IMG/VR virus record: IMGVR_UViG_3300043778_000094
Coordinates: 1-53,668 of that record
Strand: one strand, 5' to 3'
Origin: a virus
Lineage: Duplodnaviria; Caudoviricetes
Length of the DNA: 53,668 nt
In this document: piece by piece, positions 46,808-52,529 of the stretch
Position numbering within the stretch: the stretch's first letter is position 1
Layout: each line of letters opens with the position of its first letter
Translations under genes and position numbers: made by a program
Notes under the pieces: model-generated
Database searches by the model: none
What the model saw: the letters and a program-made list of their open reading frames with translations, nothing else
What the model was told of the DNA's origin: nothing

Positions 46808-47470
46808 CTAGCTCTTTTGTTTCAATTCGTAGAGCCAGCCGCCGGGTTGCCAATCGGCATCGTCTGGGTCGGGGCCGACTGGGATTTCTTGTCGCGTGCG
46901 AGTGTCGTGATCCCAACGCGTTCTGACCATTTTGACCGGTTTCTTGGAACGCTCTTGCGCCAGCTTCGTGACGCATTGCTTGACCGTGCGCCCGCGCGCG
47001 TCGTCAGCGTCGCAATAGATCGAAAGATAGCCGCTTTCGCTCAGAAACGGCCGATCCCAATCAAACGCCGTCAATTCGAAATGGAAGTCGCCGTCGGCGT
47101 GAACCACGACTCGGCATTTCTTGACCGTGATCAGAAACGTGCCGCTCTGACCCCAAAGCGGCACTTGACCGGGTGCAGTCGCGAGCAATTTTGTCAACCG
47201 GGCATGGCCGGTCAACTCTTCGTCATCGTCATCGTCTGGCATGGCGTCGCCGACGGCATAGAGGCGATCGGCGAATTCGCTGGCCTGGGCTTCGTCGCCG
47301 CCGCGGATCGCAGCGTCATACTGCTTGAGCCAGGCGCGGCCTTGTTCGAGCCGTTCGGTGGGGTCGCCGGCGAGCTCACGGTGGATGCGATAACGCCGTT
47401 CGATAGGACTCGACGGCGGCAGAAAATCAAACCCCGGCTGAAACGCCTGGGCGGTTGCTGTTCGACGCAT
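46808..47470 (-). CDS. KlcB-like protein
   Basis: APGQVPLWGQSGTFLI..FHFE..DWDRPFLSESGY recalls IncP KlcB; ATG follows the conserved SD box. Confidence 0.55.
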   Translation of the reverse strand: MRRTATAQAFQPGFDFLPPSSPIERRYRIHRELAGDPTERLEQGRAWLKQYDAAIRGGDEAQASEFADRLYAVGDAMPDDDDDEELTGHARLTKLLATAPGQVPLWGQSGTFLITVKKCRVVVHADGDFHFELTAFDWDRPFLSESGYLSIYCDADDARGRTVKQCVTKLAQERSKKPVKMVRTRWDHDTRTRQEIPVGPDPDDADWQPGGWLYELKQKS

Positions 47471-47504
47471 GTATCGTCTCCATTGCAGATCGGGAAAGAG
47501 GCTT

Positions 47505-47565
47505 CCCGTGACGCGCGGGCGAGCCGCGCGTTTCGGCCCGGTGCTACCGGGCCTCGTCAGACGGG
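47505..47565 (-). ncRNA. Hammerhead ribozyme HH1 (type I)
   Basis: cccgu CUGACGA ggcccggu-agc-accgggcc GAAA cgcgcgg-cucgc-ccgcgcg UC/acggg; GUC cut after 47510. Confidence 0.95.
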
Positions 47566-48372
47566 GTATTCGCGCACCCGCAAATCGCGGGGCCATTCTT
47601 CTGGGTCGGCGCCAGCATAATGCACGGTCGACAACGACCGATCATCGTCACGGGCGATCGACCCCAATTGCTTCATAAACACCGGCACGGCGGCCGCCTG
47701 ACAGCGCCGGATCATAAGTCGGGCCCAGGCGATATCAAACGATCGCGCTCGCTGCCGCGGTCGCCCGCTTTCGCCGCCGATCACTACCCAGCCCGTCCCC
47801 GTCGGGTCGCGATCGATCATCTCGAGCTGCGGCTCGACCGAGATCCACGGGACTTCGGTCGGCAGCCGGCTAAGCCACGGCACGCGTTCGTCCCAACGGC
47901 GCTGATCCTCGGCCGAGACGCCGAGCCAGATGCCGGGGTGCGCCGTCGTCGCGCCGATCTGCGCCAACAACCCAGCGAGATTGTCGGGTCGCTTGGTCAA
48001 CACCTGGAAGACATGCCCACGGGCGCGCTGCGCCGCCGTCATCGCCTCCCAGATGCGGGCAAACCATTCGCGCGGCATGTCGTCGTGGGCCAGGTCGGAC
48101 ATGCTGTTGACGAAGATCATGCGCGGTCGCGCCCAGCGCATGGGTTGCGTCAGCGCCGCTTCCCAGAAGCGCAATTCCCCGGTCCACACCGGGCCTCCCT
48201 TGGTGTTGCGCGTCAAACCGCGATATTTGGCGGACGCCGGCCCCCCAAAGCCGGCGATCCGTGCAGCTTCGCGCATCGCGTAACAATGCGTACACCCGGG
48301 CGAAATCACCGTGCATCCGACTGTCGGGTTCCACGTCGACTCGGTCCAGGCAATCGCGGTGTCGCGTGCCAT
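47557..48372 (-). CDS. Phage Gp37/Gp68 (DUF5131) family protein
   Basis: IAWTESTWNPTVGCTVISPGCTHCYA, IFVNSMSDL, FQVLTKRP, WVVIGGESG and VPVFMKQLG motifs. Confidence 0.93.
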   Translation of the reverse strand: MARDTAIAWTESTWNPTVGCTVISPGCTHCYAMREAARIAGFGGPASAKYRGLTRNTKGGPVWTGELRFWEAALTQPMRWARPRMIFVNSMSDLAHDDMPREWFARIWEAMTAAQRARGHVFQVLTKRPDNLAGLLAQIGATTAHPGIWLGVSAEDQRRWDERVPWLSRLPTEVPWISVEPQLEMIDRDPTGTGWVVIGGESGRPRQRARSFDIAWARLMIRRCQAAAVPVFMKQLGSIARDDDRSLSTVHYAGADPEEWPRDLRVREYPV

Positions 48373-48388
48373 GTGTTTCTCCCCCCCG

Positions 48389-48417
48389 TTGACAAATTTG
48401 CTAAAAACCCCCAATAT
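48389..48417 (+). promoter_or_regulatory. Putative promoter of the antisense sRNA
   Basis: TTGACA, N17, CAATAT; predicted start site ~48424-48425. Confidence 0.55.
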
Positions 48418-48424
48418 CCGCGCC

Positions 48425-48487
48425 GAAGACGTGAGTCTTCATTGCAGAACTGGGGGGCCGTCCTGATTGGGGCGGCCCCCACTTTTT
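48425..48487 (+). ncRNA. Putative trans-acting sRNA antisense to the shared SD box
   Basis: GAAGAC-GUGA-GUCUUC hairpin, single-stranded AUUGCAGAACU, then an 11-bp terminator stem (48453-48480) and T5. Confidence 0.65.
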
Positions 48488-49781
48488 ACGCTGCCTCGTC
48501 AGAAGCGGTCTCGGGAAAGACTTCGCTGACTGACTTATCGCCCTCGCCGGGAACGACTTTATCCGGCGACAACACGGTTTCGACCTGGCGCCAATCGAGG
48601 CAGCGCGTGGCCGCCACTTCCGGCGTCAAACCGCCTTCCCACCAGCTGTCGAGCGGCACGCCGTCGGCGAGTTGGTGGATCGTCAAGCCGGCATTGTCAC
48701 GCGACAACACGGCGTTGACATCGGCGAAGAATTTTGCCCTCGCCTTTTTCGCGGGCGCGCCCTTGAGCTTGGCTCGCTGGGCGACGCGCGTGGTGTCGCC
48801 GTCGTCTGTCGTTTCGGCCTCGTCCTCATCAAGCAATTGAGGCGATGGTGCCGGCGCAGGTAACGCGGTCTGAGGCTGCGTACGGGTTATCAACGTGTTG
48901 ATCCGCTGATCGTAATCCTCGATCTTTTTCTGCAGCAGCCGATTGTTCGGCATTTTTTCGAGCCGCGCCATGGTGCGCGTGCGATTGGCCCGCAAAGCGC
49001 CAATTGTCCCGGTGATTGCCGGGTTCAATATGCGCGCTTGCTGCGGCGCCAACGCCTGATCTCTGAGCCCCATCACGGGCATCAACGCCAACACCGCCCC
49101 CGGGCATCCGGGGAACATAATCAACGTTGGCTTGTCATCGCCCGCGCCGAAGACCTGCACGGTCGGCGACTCGAGCAATTTCGCGAGATCAGCGACACCC
49201 TTGAGATAGGCCGCTTGATAGCCGGTACTTTCGAGGTCCAGTGTTTCGCGCGACGACAGATTGATGCTGGCGAACATGCCGTCGTAAGCCGGAAAGTCGC
49301 CTTCGACTGGGAACAGACGAAAGGTGACATTGTCGTGAGGATCCGACAACAACAGGCGCGGCGCGCCAGTCCCATACGAAATCACGGCGGAGTCGCCGCC
49401 GAGCTTTTCGATCATCATCAACTGTTCTCTGAACAGAGCGAGCGGCACCGTTATTCCCTTTCCGAGCCAACCGGGCAGCGTTGCTGACCCGCTTGGGATC
49501 GAATAGGCGAATAAGCGATGACCGTCGGTCGCGCTGACACGGACTTCGCCTTCGCGCGTGGCGATGTTGACGCCCTGGAGATTTTCCGGGACGTCTTTCT
49601 TGTCGCCGTTGACATCGGTGGTTTTGGCACCGGTGCAGCTGATCGCTGCCTTGAGCGCGAGCACGGGGATGGCGATCGGCTCAAGCGCCGCCACCGACTC
49701 CACGACCGCCTCCTCGACAACGTTCTCGGCAGCGCCGTTCGACGGCGCCACTTCGCGCGAAGTGCTTTTCTTGGTTCGCAT
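48486..49781 (-). CDS. Beta sliding clamp (DnaN)-like protein with terminal extensions
   Basis: LQGV..ATDGHRL, GITVP, EGDFPAY, GYQAAYL and LALMPV resemble clamp domains 2-3. Confidence 0.75.
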   Translation of the reverse strand: MRTKKSTSREVAPSNGAAENVVEEAVVESVAALEPIAIPVLALKAAISCTGAKTTDVNGDKKDVPENLQGVNIATREGEVRVSATDGHRLFAYSIPSGSATLPGWLGKGITVPLALFREQLMMIEKLGGDSAVISYGTGAPRLLLSDPHDNVTFRLFPVEGDFPAYDGMFASINLSSRETLDLESTGYQAAYLKGVADLAKLLESPTVQVFGAGDDKPTLIMFPGCPGAVLALMPVMGLRDQALAPQQARILNPAITGTIGALRANRTRTMARLEKMPNNRLLQKKIEDYDQRINTLITRTQPQTALPAPAPSPQLLDEDEAETTDDGDTTRVAQRAKLKGAPAKKARAKFFADVNAVLSRDNAGLTIHQLADGVPLDSWWEGGLTPEVAATRCLDWRQVETVLSPDKVVPGEGDKSVSEVFPETASDEAA

Positions 49782-49817
49782 AATGGGTCTCCATTGCAGG
49801 TATCGGGAAATTAGCTT

Positions 49818-49878
49818 CCCGTGACGCGCGGGCGAGCCGCGCGTTTCGGCCCGGTGCTACCGGGCCTCGTCAGACGGG
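49818..49878 (-). ncRNA. Hammerhead ribozyme HH2 (type I), identical to HH1
   Basis: 49814-49878 is an exact 65-bp copy of 47501-47565; GUC cut after 49823. Confidence 0.95.
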
Positions 49879-49879
49879 T

Positions 49880-50143
49880 TTAGTGATGTAGTAATTGCGC
49901 GATTTGCGTTAATTGGCCGCTGATGTCGCCGAGCCGACCGTTCATGCTGACAATCATGCCAAGAACTGCGATCGTGGCGGCGGCATTCGCGCCGACCGCC
50001 CAAATCAACATTGTCAGCTTTCCTTCGACGCCGAGCAGCCGCTTTTCATAATCGGCAAGTTCTTCTGCGGCTTTGTCGGCTTTGTCGGTCGAAGCGCCAG
50101 CGTCCAGCAACGCATCGCGTAATGCGCCGAGTTGCAACGCCAT
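49880..50143 (-). CDS. Small coiled-coil/TM protein (DUF1640-like)
   Basis: LRDALLDAGAS.DKA..AAE..then a TM segment; CAATGGAGG SD. Confidence 0.65.
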   Translation of the reverse strand: MALQLGALRDALLDAGASTDKADKAAEELADYEKRLLGVEGKLTMLIWAVGANAAATIAVLGMIVSMNGRLGDISGQLTQIAQLLHH

Positions 50144-50159
50144 GTTGCCTCCATTGTTG

Positions 50160-50375
50160 TCAGCCGAGATATAGCAACAATTCCTCGGCGCCGAACACCT
50201 GTTCGACACCGCAGCTGTCGCACGTGTAGTTGCGAGCGTCGGGTTCGCAACCGTCGGCCTCTTCGCCGCAAATCAGGCAAAAGCCGGGGTTATCGAGTTC
50301 CGTCATCTCGCGTTCGACTGCCTCCATCACGCGTTCAGCGGTGATCGAAGCGTGCCACAGCTTGCGCGCTAGCAT
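50160..50375 (-). CDS. Small zinc-ribbon protein
   Basis: GFCLICG..CEPDARNY.CDSCG..VFGAEE. Confidence 0.75.
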   Translation of the reverse strand: MLARKLWHASITAERVMEAVEREMTELDNPGFCLICGEEADGCEPDARNYTCDSCGVEQVFGAEELLLYLG

Positions 50376-50575
50376 GACCGGCACTCCGGGTAGAGTTGCA
50401 GACGGGTCGAGCGCATCGCCGGCACGCCGTGGCGGCCGAATTGACGCCGCCAGGCAGCAAGTTCCTCGTTCGATACGGCAAAGCGGATCGAAGCCTCGGC
50501 GATCGACAACAAGTCGTAATCGATCGCCAGCAACAACACCGCTTTGCGTTGCGGCGACCAACGATCAGTGGCCAT
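50369..50575 (-). CDS. SciP (DUF1153)-like CtrA-inhibitor homologue
   Basis: RWSPQRKA.LL.AI...LLSIAEA..RF.VS.EEL.AW.R....HG..AMR.TRLQ.Y follows the SciP pattern RW..RKA.VV.AV.GGLLS.EEA..RY.L..EEF..W.....HG..GLR.T..Q.Y. Confidence 0.8.
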   Translation of the reverse strand: MATDRWSPQRKAVLLLAIDYDLLSIAEASIRFAVSNEELAAWRRQFGRHGVPAMRSTRLQLYPECRSC

Positions 50576-50756
50576 TGTTCGGGACCATGACGTTGAGCGC
50601 CAACTTGACGCCGGGGCGCTTGCACTCGACTGGCACTATCCCGTGGGTCGAGGCGATCAGCTTGGTTTTGCCGGTCTTCGACGTGACGCCGCGGGCGGTC
50701 AGATCGCAGGTGATTACGAGCTTGTCGCCCGTCACCTTGATCTCGACGTTTTCCAT
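50565..50756 (-). CDS. Small beta-rich basic protein
   Basis: MENVEIKVTGDKLVITCDL..SKTGKTKLIASTHG; follows HH3 and the SD box. Confidence 0.8.
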   Translation of the reverse strand: MENVEIKVTGDKLVITCDLTARGVTSKTGKTKLIASTHGIVPVECKRPGVKLALNVMVPNNGH

Positions 50757-50792
50757 AAGGGTCTCCATTGCAGGTGGTACGGAATTGGACTT

Positions 50793-50853
50793 CCGCGACG
50801 TCCCGACTTGTGTCGGGACGTTTCGTCCCCTGTCACGGGGACTCGTCAGGCGG
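50793..50853 (-). ncRNA. Hammerhead ribozyme HH3 (type I)
   Basis: ccgc CUGACGA gucccc-gugaca-ggggac GAAA cgucccgac-acaa-gucgggacg UC/gcgg; cut after 50797. Confidence 0.95.
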
Positions 50854-50856
50854 GGA

Positions 50857-51066
50857 TTAATCCCAGGATCGGGATTTGCCGTAAGTGTCGCGGATGAGGA
50901 TTTTCGTCCCGAAGTCGCGCGAACGCGCCTCGGTGGCGAAGGCCTGAACCTCCTTCTCGTCCTCGCATTGCGCGTGGTCGAGCAGTTCGAGCCCGTCACG
51001 GCTCAACACCGTGACTTGCCATTTGACCCTGCTGCCGCGTGGCGGCACATATTGGCGACGTGCCAT
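50857..51066 (-). CDS. Hypothetical protein
   Basis: 69 aa starting MARRQYVPPRG; bounded by HH4 and HH3. Confidence 0.75.
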   Translation of the reverse strand: MARRQYVPPRGSRVKWQVTVLSRDGLELLDHAQCEDEKEVQAFATEARSRDFGTKILIRDTYGKSRSWD

Positions 51067-51100
51067 GATGGTCTCCATTGCAGAAGTGCGGATTTTTTGT

Positions 51101-51160
51101 ACCGCTACGCCCAGCTTGCGTTGGGCGTTTCGCTGGGGTCTCACCAGCTCTTCAGGCGGT
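51101..51160 (-). ncRNA. Hammerhead ribozyme HH4 (type I)
   Basis: accgc CUGAAGA gcugg-ugagacc-ccagc GAAA cgccca-acgcaagc-ugggcg UA/gcggu; GUA cut after 51106. Confidence 0.93.
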
Positions 51161-51448
51161 TTGTGCTGCCAACGCGTCCTCGAGGGCCTTCTTGGCAACT
51201 GGGTTGGTGAACGTCGCGACGCGAGCCGCGAGCCGGGTCCGATTGGCCCGACGTGCAGCCTCGTGACGATCGCACGGGACGCTCGAACGCACGCGACGCG
51301 CCGGCGCATCGGCCAGTTGCGCGTCATAGTGCGCCAGCGCCTCAACAACCGCTGCTTTCGCGACGGCGTTGGTGAAGGTTTCGCCCTTCTGGGCCAGCCG
51401 GGTACGATTTGCGCGCACGGCTGCGAAGTGCATCACTGACTTTGTCAT
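51152..51448 (-). CDS. Hypothetical protein with two RANRTRLA repeats (paralogue A)
   Basis: Internal duplication; stop codon is the UGA of the HH4 core. Confidence 0.8.
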   Translation of the reverse strand: MTKSVMHFAAVRANRTRLAQKGETFTNAVAKAAVVEALAHYDAQLADAPARRVRSSVPCDRHEAARRANRTRLAARVATFTNPVAKKALEDALAAQTA

Positions 51449-51486
51449 CGTGGACTCCATTGCAGAAAAGGGGTGCGGTCGAAAGT

Positions 51487-51542
51487 ACCGCGACCAGCCT
51501 TGTGGCTGGTTTCGCCCGGATTTCACGGGCTCATCAGGCGGT
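51487..51542 (-). ncRNA. Hammerhead ribozyme HH5 (type I)
   Basis: accgc CUGAUGA gcccg-ugaaauc-cgggc GAAA ccagcc-acaa-ggcugg UC/gcggu; cut after 51492. Confidence 0.95.
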
Positions 51543-51742
51543 TACGCGACAGTGATAACGACGTTGTCGCTGTCGCCGTTCGACCCGGTGTCGAGGTCAT
51601 AGCGACCGACACGGATCAACGCGTCGAAGATGATTTCTTCGTCGTCGTCTAACATGTTGACGGCGATTACATCGAACAGCGGGGCTGTTTCGGACGAACC
51701 ATCGGAGAAAGTCAGGCAGACGATCGTTGAACGGGTGATCAT
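51542..51742 (-). CDS. Small acidic hypothetical protein
   Basis: 66 aa starting MITRSTIV, containing LDDDEE; bounded by HH6 and HH5. Confidence 0.75.
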   Translation of the reverse strand: MITRSTIVCLTFSDGSSETAPLFDVIAVNMLDDDEEIIFDALIRVGRYDLDTGSNGDSDNVVITVA

Positions 51743-51766
51743 CGTGGGCTCCATTGCAGAGAGTTA

Positions 51767-51824
51767 CCGCTACGCCCAGCAAGCGCTGGGCGTTTCGCCC
51801 GAATTTCACGGGCTCGTCAGGCGG
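51767..51824 (-). ncRNA. Hammerhead ribozyme HH6 (type I)
   Basis: ccgc CUGACGA gcccg-ugaaauu-cgggc GAAA cgcccagc-gcuu-gcugggcg UA/gcgg; cut after 51771. Confidence 0.95.
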
Positions 51825-52086
51825 CTTGTGACAGCGCGTCTTCGATCGCCTTGCGGGCGATTTCGTTGGTGAACTTCGAAGCGCGAACTGCGAGCCGGGT
51901 GCGATTTGCCTTGACAGCTGCGAGGTGCCGATCGCACGGGGTGGGCACATTGTGCAGCGCGTCGAAAATCGCGACCGCTTCGGAAATCGCCTTGCGTGCG
52001 ACTTCGTTGGTGAACGAATTCGACTTGGCAGCCAGGCGGGTCCGGTTTGCGCGGATCGCAGCGATATGGCGGATCGTGTTGGTCAT
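51817..52086 (-). CDS. Hypothetical protein with two RANRTRLA repeats (paralogue B)
   Basis: Internal duplication; stop codon is the UGA of the HH6 core. Confidence 0.8.
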   Translation of the reverse strand: MTNTIRHIAAIRANRTRLAAKSNSFTNEVARKAISEAVAIFDALHNVPTPCDRHLAAVKANRTRLAVRASKFTNEIARKAIEDALSQAA

Positions 52087-52122
52087 CGTGGGCTCCATTG
52101 CGATAGGGTTTCGGGTTGATTT

Positions 52123-52176
52123 CCCGTGAGCGCTTGTGCGCTTTCGTCCCGGCATCACCGGGCCTCGTCAGACGGG
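52123..52176 (-). ncRNA. Hammerhead ribozyme HH7 (type I)
   Basis: cccgu CUGACGA ggcccgg-ugaug-ccgggac GAAA gcgc-acaa-gcgc UC/acggg; CUC cut after 52128; one G/A mismatch in stem II. Confidence 0.88.
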
Positions 52177-52529
52177 TTGCGATCAAGCGCGCGTCATTTC
52201 TGACGCGCGCTCGCTCGTTTCGTTTGCAAGTGGAGATCCTGCAATGAGCCGCGCTATCTGGCAGCGCGGGTGCATTCCTTCGATTTTGTCGTGTCCGAAA
52301 CCCGAAGTGGGTCGCCTGTGGGGGGCCTGCCGGGGAGCTTCAGGCGCTAGTGCGCGCTTTCGAGCTTTCCTACCCGATCCCGATCCGTCAGCCCGGGGAA
52401 TGATATGGTTGGCTGACTTTGCAATCCTTCGAAGCTGGGTCGCGCCTGGATTGCTTCGCGCGTCCCTTGGAAGTCTTGTTTCGTTTCGCGTTTCGCTTCG
52501 TCCTTCTGTCGTTTCGTCTTACACACATG

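Follow-up and report, generated by a model that had tools for sequence, protein, structure and literature searches.

Why should a gene take its stop codon from the catalytic core of a ribozyme, and does such an arrangement let the ribosome control the cut? The question is raised by a complete virus record of 53,668 bp (IMG/VR record IMGVR_UViG_3300043778_000094; Duplodnaviria, Caudoviricetes; 62% guanine plus cytosine, GC), which was analysed over its whole length and is called the window below. On its minus strand, between 47.5 and 52.2 kb, seven canonical type I hammerhead ribozymes lie between early genes, and three of these genes stop on the UGA of the CUGANGA core of the ribozyme that follows. 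A preliminary description of this DNA had suggested that a ribosome terminating there sits on the ribozyme and that cleavage may be coupled to translation of the upstream gene. We find that, as a general rule, the ribozyme begins where the gene stops, and that sharing of the UGA is a frequent and labile outcome. The shared stop is best read as the tightest packing of gene and ribozyme, not as a proven regulatory device.

Results

Seven type I hammerheads in a tightly packed operon

Both strands of the window were searched for the ribozyme core with a regular expression (CTGANGA...CGAAA) that did not require base pairing. Seven sites were found, all on the minus strand and all intergenic, and none occurred elsewhere on either strand of the 53.7 kb. 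The hammerheads (HH) are lettered g, f, e, d, c, b and a in the order of transcription, and the C of their CUGA lies at 52171 (g), 51820 (f), 51537 (e), 51155 (d), 50849 (c), 49873 (b) and 47560 (a). Every plausible gene between 46.8 and 52.2 kb is also on the minus strand, and the seven coding-strand ribozymes mark off 1, 1, 1, 1, 4 and 2 genes. Several hammerheads thus follow one another along the direction of transcription and flank single genes or short gene blocks, which is how clustered prophage arrays are recognized. Where no ribozyme intervenes, neighbouring genes of the array overlap by 11 and 7 nt or are spaced by 13 nt, so the operon as a whole is tightly packed.

The core (C3 U4 G5 A6 N7 G8 A9 and G12 A13 A14) is complete in all seven copies, as is the A15.1-U16.1 pair. 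N17 is C in five copies and A in two, and the cleavage triplets are GUC (four), GUA (two) and CUC (one). All seven have the type I layout, in which stems II and III are capped by loops and stem I is open; stem I is short, 4-5 bp. Pairs were counted by hammerhead numbering; a MAFFT alignment of the seven units mis-registered stem III, so no covariance model was made. The inner pairs of stems I-III are formed in 6-7 of the seven copies, with 2-4 pair types at many positions, showing compensatory changes. When the isolated units were folded, the minimum-energy structure contained stems I, II and III in 7/7, with two additional core pairs in HH-g, whose stem II has a G.A mismatch at the second pair. 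Judged by their sequence, all seven units are type I hammerheads (RF00163, clan CL00010), for which self-cleavage is predicted.

HH-g (52123-52176; predicted cleavage after C52128, CUC) lies in the operon leader and has no upstream open reading frame (ORF). It is followed by HH-f (51766-51825; after A51771, GUA), HH-e (51487-51542; after C51492, GUC), HH-d (51101-51160; after A51106, GUA), HH-c (50793-50853; after C50797, GUC), HH-b (49818-49878; after C49823, GUC) and HH-a (47505-47565; after C47510, GUC). HH-d is homologous to HH-f, from which it differs by two compensatory double changes in stem II, and the bodies of HH-a and HH-b, from stem I to stem I, are identical in the window.

Gene ends abut the ribozymes

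The three genes that stop on U4-G5-A6 of a ribozyme core are paralogue B (89 aa, 51817-52086, ending ...LSQAA*; stop 51817-51819 in HH-f), paralogue A (98 aa, 51152-51448, ending ...AAQTA*; stop 51152-51154 in HH-d) and the DUF5131 gene (271 aa from the AUG at 48372, 47557-48372, ending ...REYPV*; stop 47557-47559 in HH-a). In these genes the last two codons are the 5' strand of stem I; in HH-f, for instance, this strand and the core overlap the last codons and the stop of paralogue B. The ORF translations and ribozyme positions agree exactly with the coordinates given for these stops in the preliminary description. It had also reported a UAA next to stem I at the three other genes, and this holds with spacings from a 1-nt overlap to 3 nt. 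The 66-aa ORFan (51542-51742) ends in a UAA at 51542-51544, whose final A forms the outer pair of stem I of HH-e and is thus a one-nucleotide overlap. The UAA of the 69-aa ORFan (50857-51066) at 50857-50859 lies 3 nt ahead of the 4-bp stem I of HH-c, and the last gene of a block of four small genes (49880-50756), ribozyme-free inside, stops on a UAA at 49880-49882, 1 nt ahead of the 5-bp stem I of HH-b.

The frame coincidence alone is not significant. Three core stops in six junctions correspond to P=0.32 under a null of 1/3. Paralogues A and B share 55% identity, and their gene ends align together with the ribozymes as a single duplicated block; therefore only two independent events remain in five junctions (P=0.54). 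When the stop is placed by the offset of its first base from the C of CUGA, all six stops of the window lie at -10 to +1. The non-random feature is the abutment of the stop on the ribozyme, not the reading frame.

Stop positions among phage type I hammerheads

An RF00163 search of the genomes holding two loci of the comparative set, L071 and L077, gave no match and missed the three hammerheads of L071. Because of the Rfam misses, junctions were sampled with a descriptor of our own. Six scans with patterns in IUPAC (International Union of Pure and Applied Chemistry) code, five of IMG/VR and one of genome_contigs, provided 556 sequences including the window; all figures below refer to the matches listed and are samples, not a full count. 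The descriptor demanded the core together with minimum pair counts of 3 (stem II), 4 (stem III) and 4 (stem I), and yielded 425 distinct junctions with at least 200 nt upstream, at 297 loci. The genome_contigs scan gave 70 loci, which by their record titles are mostly one repeated element of a single Bacillota chromosome and scattered singles; only L071 (three hammerheads) and L024 (one) passed the descriptor among L020-L089.

The upstream frame was called heuristically from composition and open length, using only the sequence upstream of the ribozyme. Of the junctions, 340 were callable, 36 weak and 26 ambiguous, and 23 had no ORF; after removal of five calls with a read-through of at least 100 nt, 335 remained. 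As a control, the caller recovered the expected stop at 6/6 junctions of the window family, and the coding scores of core-stop calls were at least equal to those of the other classes.

Stops were concentrated at the edge of the ribozyme. The core UGA (offset +1) was used in 90 junctions (27%), 148 stops (44%) abutted or overlapped stem I (-10 to -3), 69 (21%) lay further upstream (below -10, 11-60 nt) and 28 (8%) were inside the ribozyme (+8 to +56). Thus 238/335 stops (71%) fell at -10 to +1, as against 19% if stops were spread evenly across -60 to +1. Counting each upstream-protein cluster once (285 clusters from 329 proteins) gave 75, 129, 55 and 26. The gap between stop and stem I peaked at 0 (51 junctions), -1 (33) and +1 (25), and the stop position tracked the length of stem I, with a mode of -7 for 4 bp, -8 for 5 bp and both -8 and -9 for 6 bp. 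The idea that an in-frame "backup stop" is selected for was set aside because stop position follows stem I length.

The preliminary description had named a check on its proposal, namely whether the phase between gene end and core is conserved in homologous arrays. The comparison does not support a selected phase. Overall, the core-UGA share of 90/335 is below 1/3 (p=0.013). By GC content it was 10/94 below 40%, 28/84 at 40-50%, 12/54 at 50-58% and 40/103 at 58% or more, and in no stratum was it significantly above 1/3 (p=0.25 for the highest); in the stem I family of the window it was 45/106 (p=0.05). Among 26 clusters with at least two orthologous junctions, 14 showed a single state and 12 were mixed, and of the 10 clusters with a core-stop member five also held another state. 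The DUF5131 junction gives an example. The gene ends ...REYPV on the core UGA (+1) in the window and in the related loci L006 and L011, but in L015 it ends ...REYPQ on its own UGAUGA at -22, with a 23-nt indel flanked by ACCC repeats relative to the window. In a fourth relative, L014, an extra small gene stands between the DUF5131 gene and HH-a, and its stop is at -14.

The junction of L014 was also noted for its layout (about 2250-2460 of that locus). The DUF5131 gene is followed directly by UCUGCAAUGGAG and the small gene (MEKRQ...), ribozyme-free, and HH-a comes after the small gene. This same variant was also seen as a loose end at 47563 in one RNA run (X16). It therefore seems that a ribozyme can come or go with sharply defined boundaries.

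A uniform leader follows each ribozyme

The ribozyme is part of a larger repeated cassette, 81-96 nt from the core C to the next AUG. After the end of the upstream gene come the 5' strand of stem I, CUGANGA, stem II, GAAA, stem III, the cleavage site and the 3' strand of stem I, and the cassette continues with a short hairpin that re-pairs this 3' strand, a box YGCAAUGGAG that holds the Shine-Dalgarno (SD) sequence, 5-7 nt, and the AUG. The SD box and the AUG are in an invariant register in 7/7, and the 3' strand of stem I has two possible partners. A second pairing partner for this strand (ACGGG or GCGG) lies 6-10 nt further on, as in CGGGAA/UUCCCG or GCGGU/ACCGC, and the predicted 3' product opens with this alternative hairpin in 7/7.

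On the minus strand, the predicted 3' product of HH-g (52084-52127) carries a hairpin CGGG/CCCG, the SD box CGCAAUGGAG at 52093-52101 and the AUG of paralogue B at 52084-52086. Downstream of HH-e are the hairpin GCGGU/ACCGC, an SD box at 51455-51463 and the AUG of paralogue A at 51446-51448; HH-d is followed by an SD box at 51073-51081 and an AUG at 51064-51066, and HH-c by an SD box at 50763-50771 and an AUG at 50754-50756. HH-b has the hairpin CGGGAA/UUCCCG, an SD box at 49789-49797 and an AUG at 49779-49781, and HH-a the hairpin CGGGAAG/CUUUCCCG, an SD box at 47478-47486 and the AUG of a 220-aa ORFan (46808-47470) at 47468-47470.

When the first 21 nt were forced to be single-stranded, the 3' strand of stem I moved into the alternative hairpin in 6/7 copies. 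Beyond the window, a 5'-terminal hairpin of at least 4 bp was found in 78% of 120 members of the CGC/GCG stem I family versus 38% in shuffles, and a start codon with an SD sequence lay within 120 nt of the cut in 324/425 junctions (median 34 nt).

In the minimum-energy fold of uncleaved HH-a (47470-47565) and HH-b (49781-49878), on the minus strand, CGUCU (the 5' strand of stem I and C3-U4) pairs with AGACG of the GGAGACG SD box. If folding is as modelled, cleavage might also release the SD sequence in these two copies, to which the pairing is confined, perhaps by chance.

Gene-sized pieces in soil RNA

Six soil metatranscriptome runs contained 25-46% of the sampled sequence words of the region, and four of them were examined as assembled contigs. 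The RNA contig pieces were gene-sized (32 of 46 were listed). None of these 32 extends 31 nt or more to both sides of a cleavage site, and listed contigs cross all three ribozyme-free gene junctions. On the RNA 3' side, contig ends fall no more than 3 nt from the C of CUGA, in up to three runs per site: at 50849, 50852 and 50852 for HH-c, at 51153, 51155 and 51155 for HH-d, at 51819 and 51818 for HH-f and at 49875 for HH-b. Contigs approaching the predicted 5'-OH end stop 9-23 nt short of it, and several others end deeper in genes.

The predicted cut lies about 50 nt beyond these 3'-side ends, and the ribozyme bodies b-f are in no listed contig; the gaps over these bodies and over 51586-51746 should not be taken to mean that such RNA is absent. 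The abrupt contig ends at the core may be an artefact of poor priming or assembly at a folded GC-rich domain, or may reflect real 3' ends. Taken together, the RNA contigs give a weak hint of processing in vivo.

A further gap in cover was seen between the 431-aa gene and the DUF5131 gene. The hairpin region 48378-48479 is spanned by no listed contig: in two runs cover breaks off at 48377/48378, and it begins again at 48479 and 48506. A transcript may start separately, or be processed at a further site, just upstream of the DUF5131 AUG at 48372.

Genes of the operon and possible traces of cassette exchange

A promoter-like site (TTGAGA-16-TATATT, 10/12, minus strand, 52557-52530) about 350 nt upstream of HH-g could drive the leftward operon, as a match to the consensus only. 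In the leader, a perfect 10-bp hairpin (GCGCGCGUCA-GAAA-UGACGCGCGC, 52187-52210, minus strand) lies 10 nt upstream of stem I of HH-g and could be a candidate operator or leader structure. The first genes, paralogues B and A, encode small repeat proteins at the very start of the early operon, each with the internal repeat RANRTRLA...FTNxVAKKAxExAL present twice, and neither had a Pfam or PHROG match. One gene of the four-gene block is DUF1153. The 431-aa gene (48486-49781, ending ...SDEAA*) has weak sliding-clamp-like matches, and the DUF5131 gene, whose open frame spans 47557-48414, matches Pfam PF07505 at 215 bits. A phage-collection search of the region with BLAST (basic local alignment search tool) matched DUF5131 over short stretches only and brought up no annotated array related to this one.

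The end of the 431-aa gene holds what is possibly the relic of an eighth, decayed cassette (48435-48502, minus strand), as judged from its parts. CUGACGAG (48495-48502) lies out of frame within the last codons, and the gene is followed by a 12-bp GC-rich hairpin (48453-48480) and then by CUGCAAUGAAGAC (48435-48447), a one-base variant of the SD box. Neither GAAA nor a stem III was found around this decayed box within 48435-48502, and the element is kept in L004, L006, L011, L014 and L015.

Exchange between intact copies is suggested as well. L006 and L011 have the same HH-b as the window, but their HH-a differs in stem II; since HH-a and HH-b of the window are identical, the sequences suggest gene conversion between copies within one phage genome. 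Related arrays occur in other IMG/VR contigs. A more distant one, which comprises L005 and L008, has at least nine cassettes built in the same way, again with the GCAAUGGAG box, and a Rhodospirillales metagenome-assembled genome (L071) has three. Therefore the cassette family has spread among phages of GC-rich hosts, which are probably alphaproteobacterial.

Discussion

Probable processing cassettes packed against gene ends

The reading that we favour, and regard as probable without being secure, is that a soil phage has its leftward early operon here, with seven active-looking type I hammerheads placed along it, and that the units are cassettes for mRNA processing and insulation at maximal compaction, in which the invariant UGA serves as a free stop. 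In such a scheme, each ribozyme would fold during transcription and cut the polycistronic RNA. The upstream mRNA would retain its stop, which is 5' of the cut, and would carry stems II and III and a 2',3'-cyclic phosphate at its 3' end. The downstream mRNA would begin with a 5'-OH, and its first nucleotides would snap into the alternative hairpin, which would free the 5-bp stem I, oppose re-ligation and leave a defined leader with an accessible SD sequence. HH-g would play the same role for the operon leader.

The position of the stops would follow from the same economy. Where the frame of the gene happens to match, the core UGA would be a free stop; otherwise the gene would keep its own stop directly against stem I. 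Small indels at the end of a gene that shift it into the core frame would cost only the last residues, but the reverse change would need a new stop, so that the core-stop state should accumulate, especially in GC-rich phages, in which other stops are rare.

Several observations weigh against this reading. At gathering scores, Rfam finds no match in the window; below the threshold, HH-c is the sole copy with a full Hammerhead_1 match (28.4 bits versus 34 for gathering), and HH-e and HH-f gave only partial Hammerhead_3 matches in E-value mode. As stems II and III are longer here than in the 45-position RF00163 model, and L071 was missed as well, we read these scores as low sensitivity of the model, not as non-membership. 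When the fold is extended through the AUG, the alternative hairpin displaces stem I at minimum energy in all copies but HH-f, and the gap between the alternative-hairpin and hammerhead folds is 0-5.2 kcal/mol; on this model some copies could be slow or regulated instead of constitutive. Assembled contigs define neither RNA ends nor strand, and one contig runs 27 nt past the HH-g site. In the sample, 85/425 junctions were not callable, and the gene calls come from our own heuristic. Finally, the core-UGA frame is over-represented (163/335, chi-square p=4.5e-9). We infer that this excess comes from the stops abutting 5-bp stems (the -8 class) together with one-way drift into the core stop, selection being a possible contributor.

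Does the terminating ribosome control cleavage?

The main rival is that cleavage is gated by translation. A terminating ribosome would hold the 5' strand of stem I while the 3' strand is caught by the alternative hairpin, locking the ribozyme in an inactive form, so that cleavage would report upstream translation and set the ratio of polycistronic to processed mRNA. We consider this unlikely, although its physical basis is sound. Since the ribosomal mRNA channel extends about 11-15 nt 3' of the P site, a ribosome whose A site is on the core UGA or on a stop at -7 to -10 must occupy the 5' strand of stem I as well as part of the core when it terminates. Stem I cannot form during termination, which we regard as a side effect until shown otherwise. 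Of the coupling proposed in the preliminary description, the geometry accordingly stands, in that the stop is the core UGA or touches stem I, and the selected phase relationship does not.

Gating would make sense of several results, namely the 238/335 stops at -10 to +1, the enrichment of the alternative hairpin in the CGC/GCG stem I family, the two folds within 0-5.2 kcal/mol of each other and the over-representation of the core-UGA frame. A synthetic variant of RiboJ with a translated ORF inside it was non-functional (PMC7536230). The fold with the first 21 nt single-stranded, in which 6/7 copies form the alternative hairpin, yields a concrete switch model, and for this we keep translation gating as the main rival. 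In the model, the stop, stem I and the alternative hairpin would form a ribosome-sensing conformational switch, upstream ribosome occupancy choosing between the active hammerhead and the hairpin; we hold this specific form to be more doubtful still.

The comparative data argue in the other direction. The core stop is not above 1/3 and is evolutionarily labile, a ribosome terminating at the stop would not reach stem I at 69/335 junctions, and 28/335 genes read into stem II. Because 29% of stops are thus too far upstream or inside the ribozyme, the stop arrangement is not required. Termination is also brief relative to typical hammerhead cleavage times. Translation-coupled cleavage is therefore a possible explanation that these data do not favour over processing with maximal compaction.

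Other explanations

The cassettes may instead act mainly at the DNA level, as boundaries for homologous recombination that shuffle early genes, with ribozyme activity being secondary. The identity of HH-a and HH-b in the window versus the different HH-a stem II of L006 and L011, the duplication of paralogue and ribozyme as one block, the ribozyme-free extra gene of L014 with its preceding SD box and the high diversity of the upstream genes (329 proteins in 285 clusters) would all fit. We nevertheless find this improbable, since the strict conservation of 11 core nucleotides and the compensatory changes in the stems indicate selection on the RNA fold, and copies other than a and b share, by inspection, less than 31 nt of exact identity and would be poor substrates for recombination. 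That the motifs are inactive relics or chance matches, with a meaningless stop overlap, can hardly be maintained: the lack of Rfam matches at gathering thresholds and the decayed cassette after the 431-aa gene would agree with it, but the full core and three helices are present in 7/7, the motifs are on the coding strand only, intergenic only and nowhere else in the 53.7 kb, and they are conserved in related viral contigs.

Implications

A complete repeated cassette of this kind fits mRNA processing together with standardization of the 5' leader. Of the sampled phage type I hammerheads, about 7 in 10 start right at the upstream gene's end, and in about 1 in 4 the core UGA doubles as that gene's stop. 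For annotation, this means that coding and RNA features overlap, that Rfam thresholds miss all seven units and that the last two codons are constrained by stem I. For synthetic biology, the natural unit of 81-96 nt, which combines stop, ribozyme, hairpin and ribosome binding site, offers a compact design for an intercistronic insulator. If ribosome-tuned cleavage were true, it would represent a new type of ribozyme control, with natural ribozymes controlled by translation; if the switch operates, the balance of polycistronic and processed early mRNA, the dosage of downstream genes and mRNA lifetimes would follow upstream translation.

Comparison with known systems

In the early genes of phage T7, intercistronic ribonuclease III sites cut a polycistronic transcript into mRNAs with stabilizing terminal stems. 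Those sites need a host protein enzyme, whereas the RNA of the window is predicted to cut itself.

Clustered prophage hammerheads are already known. As described in Perreault et al. 2011 (PMC3088659), they flank genes, and long transcripts were proposed to be processed into gene-length mRNAs; arrays of Clostridium scindens, Azorhizobium caulinodans and Agrobacterium tumefaciens cleaved in vitro, and the A. tumefaciens set also in vivo. The window resembles these arrays in having several hammerheads of the same orientation on either side of single genes or short gene blocks in a phage operon. In its main text, that paper neither uses the term "stop codon" nor describes sharing of the core UGA, abutment on stem I or the hairpin with the SD box; its supplementary figures may show overlaps. 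Full-text literature searches combining hammerhead, stop or termination codon and prophage found no description of stop-codon sharing, and as far as these searches show, the cassette architecture and the stop-abutment statistics are undescribed. A 2019 review considers the function of bacterial hammerheads still open (PMC6765202). In the accessible portion of a 2026 preprint (10.64898/2026.03.05.709948), the two UGA triplets held by CUGAUGA serve an argument on the origin of the genetic code, and phage gene ends are not discussed.

A viral precedent for a ribozyme next to an early gene is HHphage of haloviruses HF1 and HF2, in which the hammerhead lies 13 nt upstream of the start of an early gene and the 5' end of the transcript is within 3 nt of the cleavage site (PMC3088659). 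In contrast to the window units, it is a lone variant ribozyme at a transcript start of an archaeal virus, and no array or relation to an upstream stop is described for it.

The closest engineered parallel is RiboJ, a plant satellite RNA hammerhead followed by a 23-nt hairpin that normalizes 5' leaders (PMC7536230). As in RiboJ, each unit of the window places a hammerhead and then a hairpin just upstream of the ribosome binding site and would leave a uniform leader, HH-g being the closest match in use. Unlike RiboJ, which is engineered and has a fixed 23-nt hairpin, the window units are natural and intercistronic, overlap the upstream stop and have a hairpin that re-uses the 3' strand of stem I. 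The resemblance is thus one of working principle and not of family membership.

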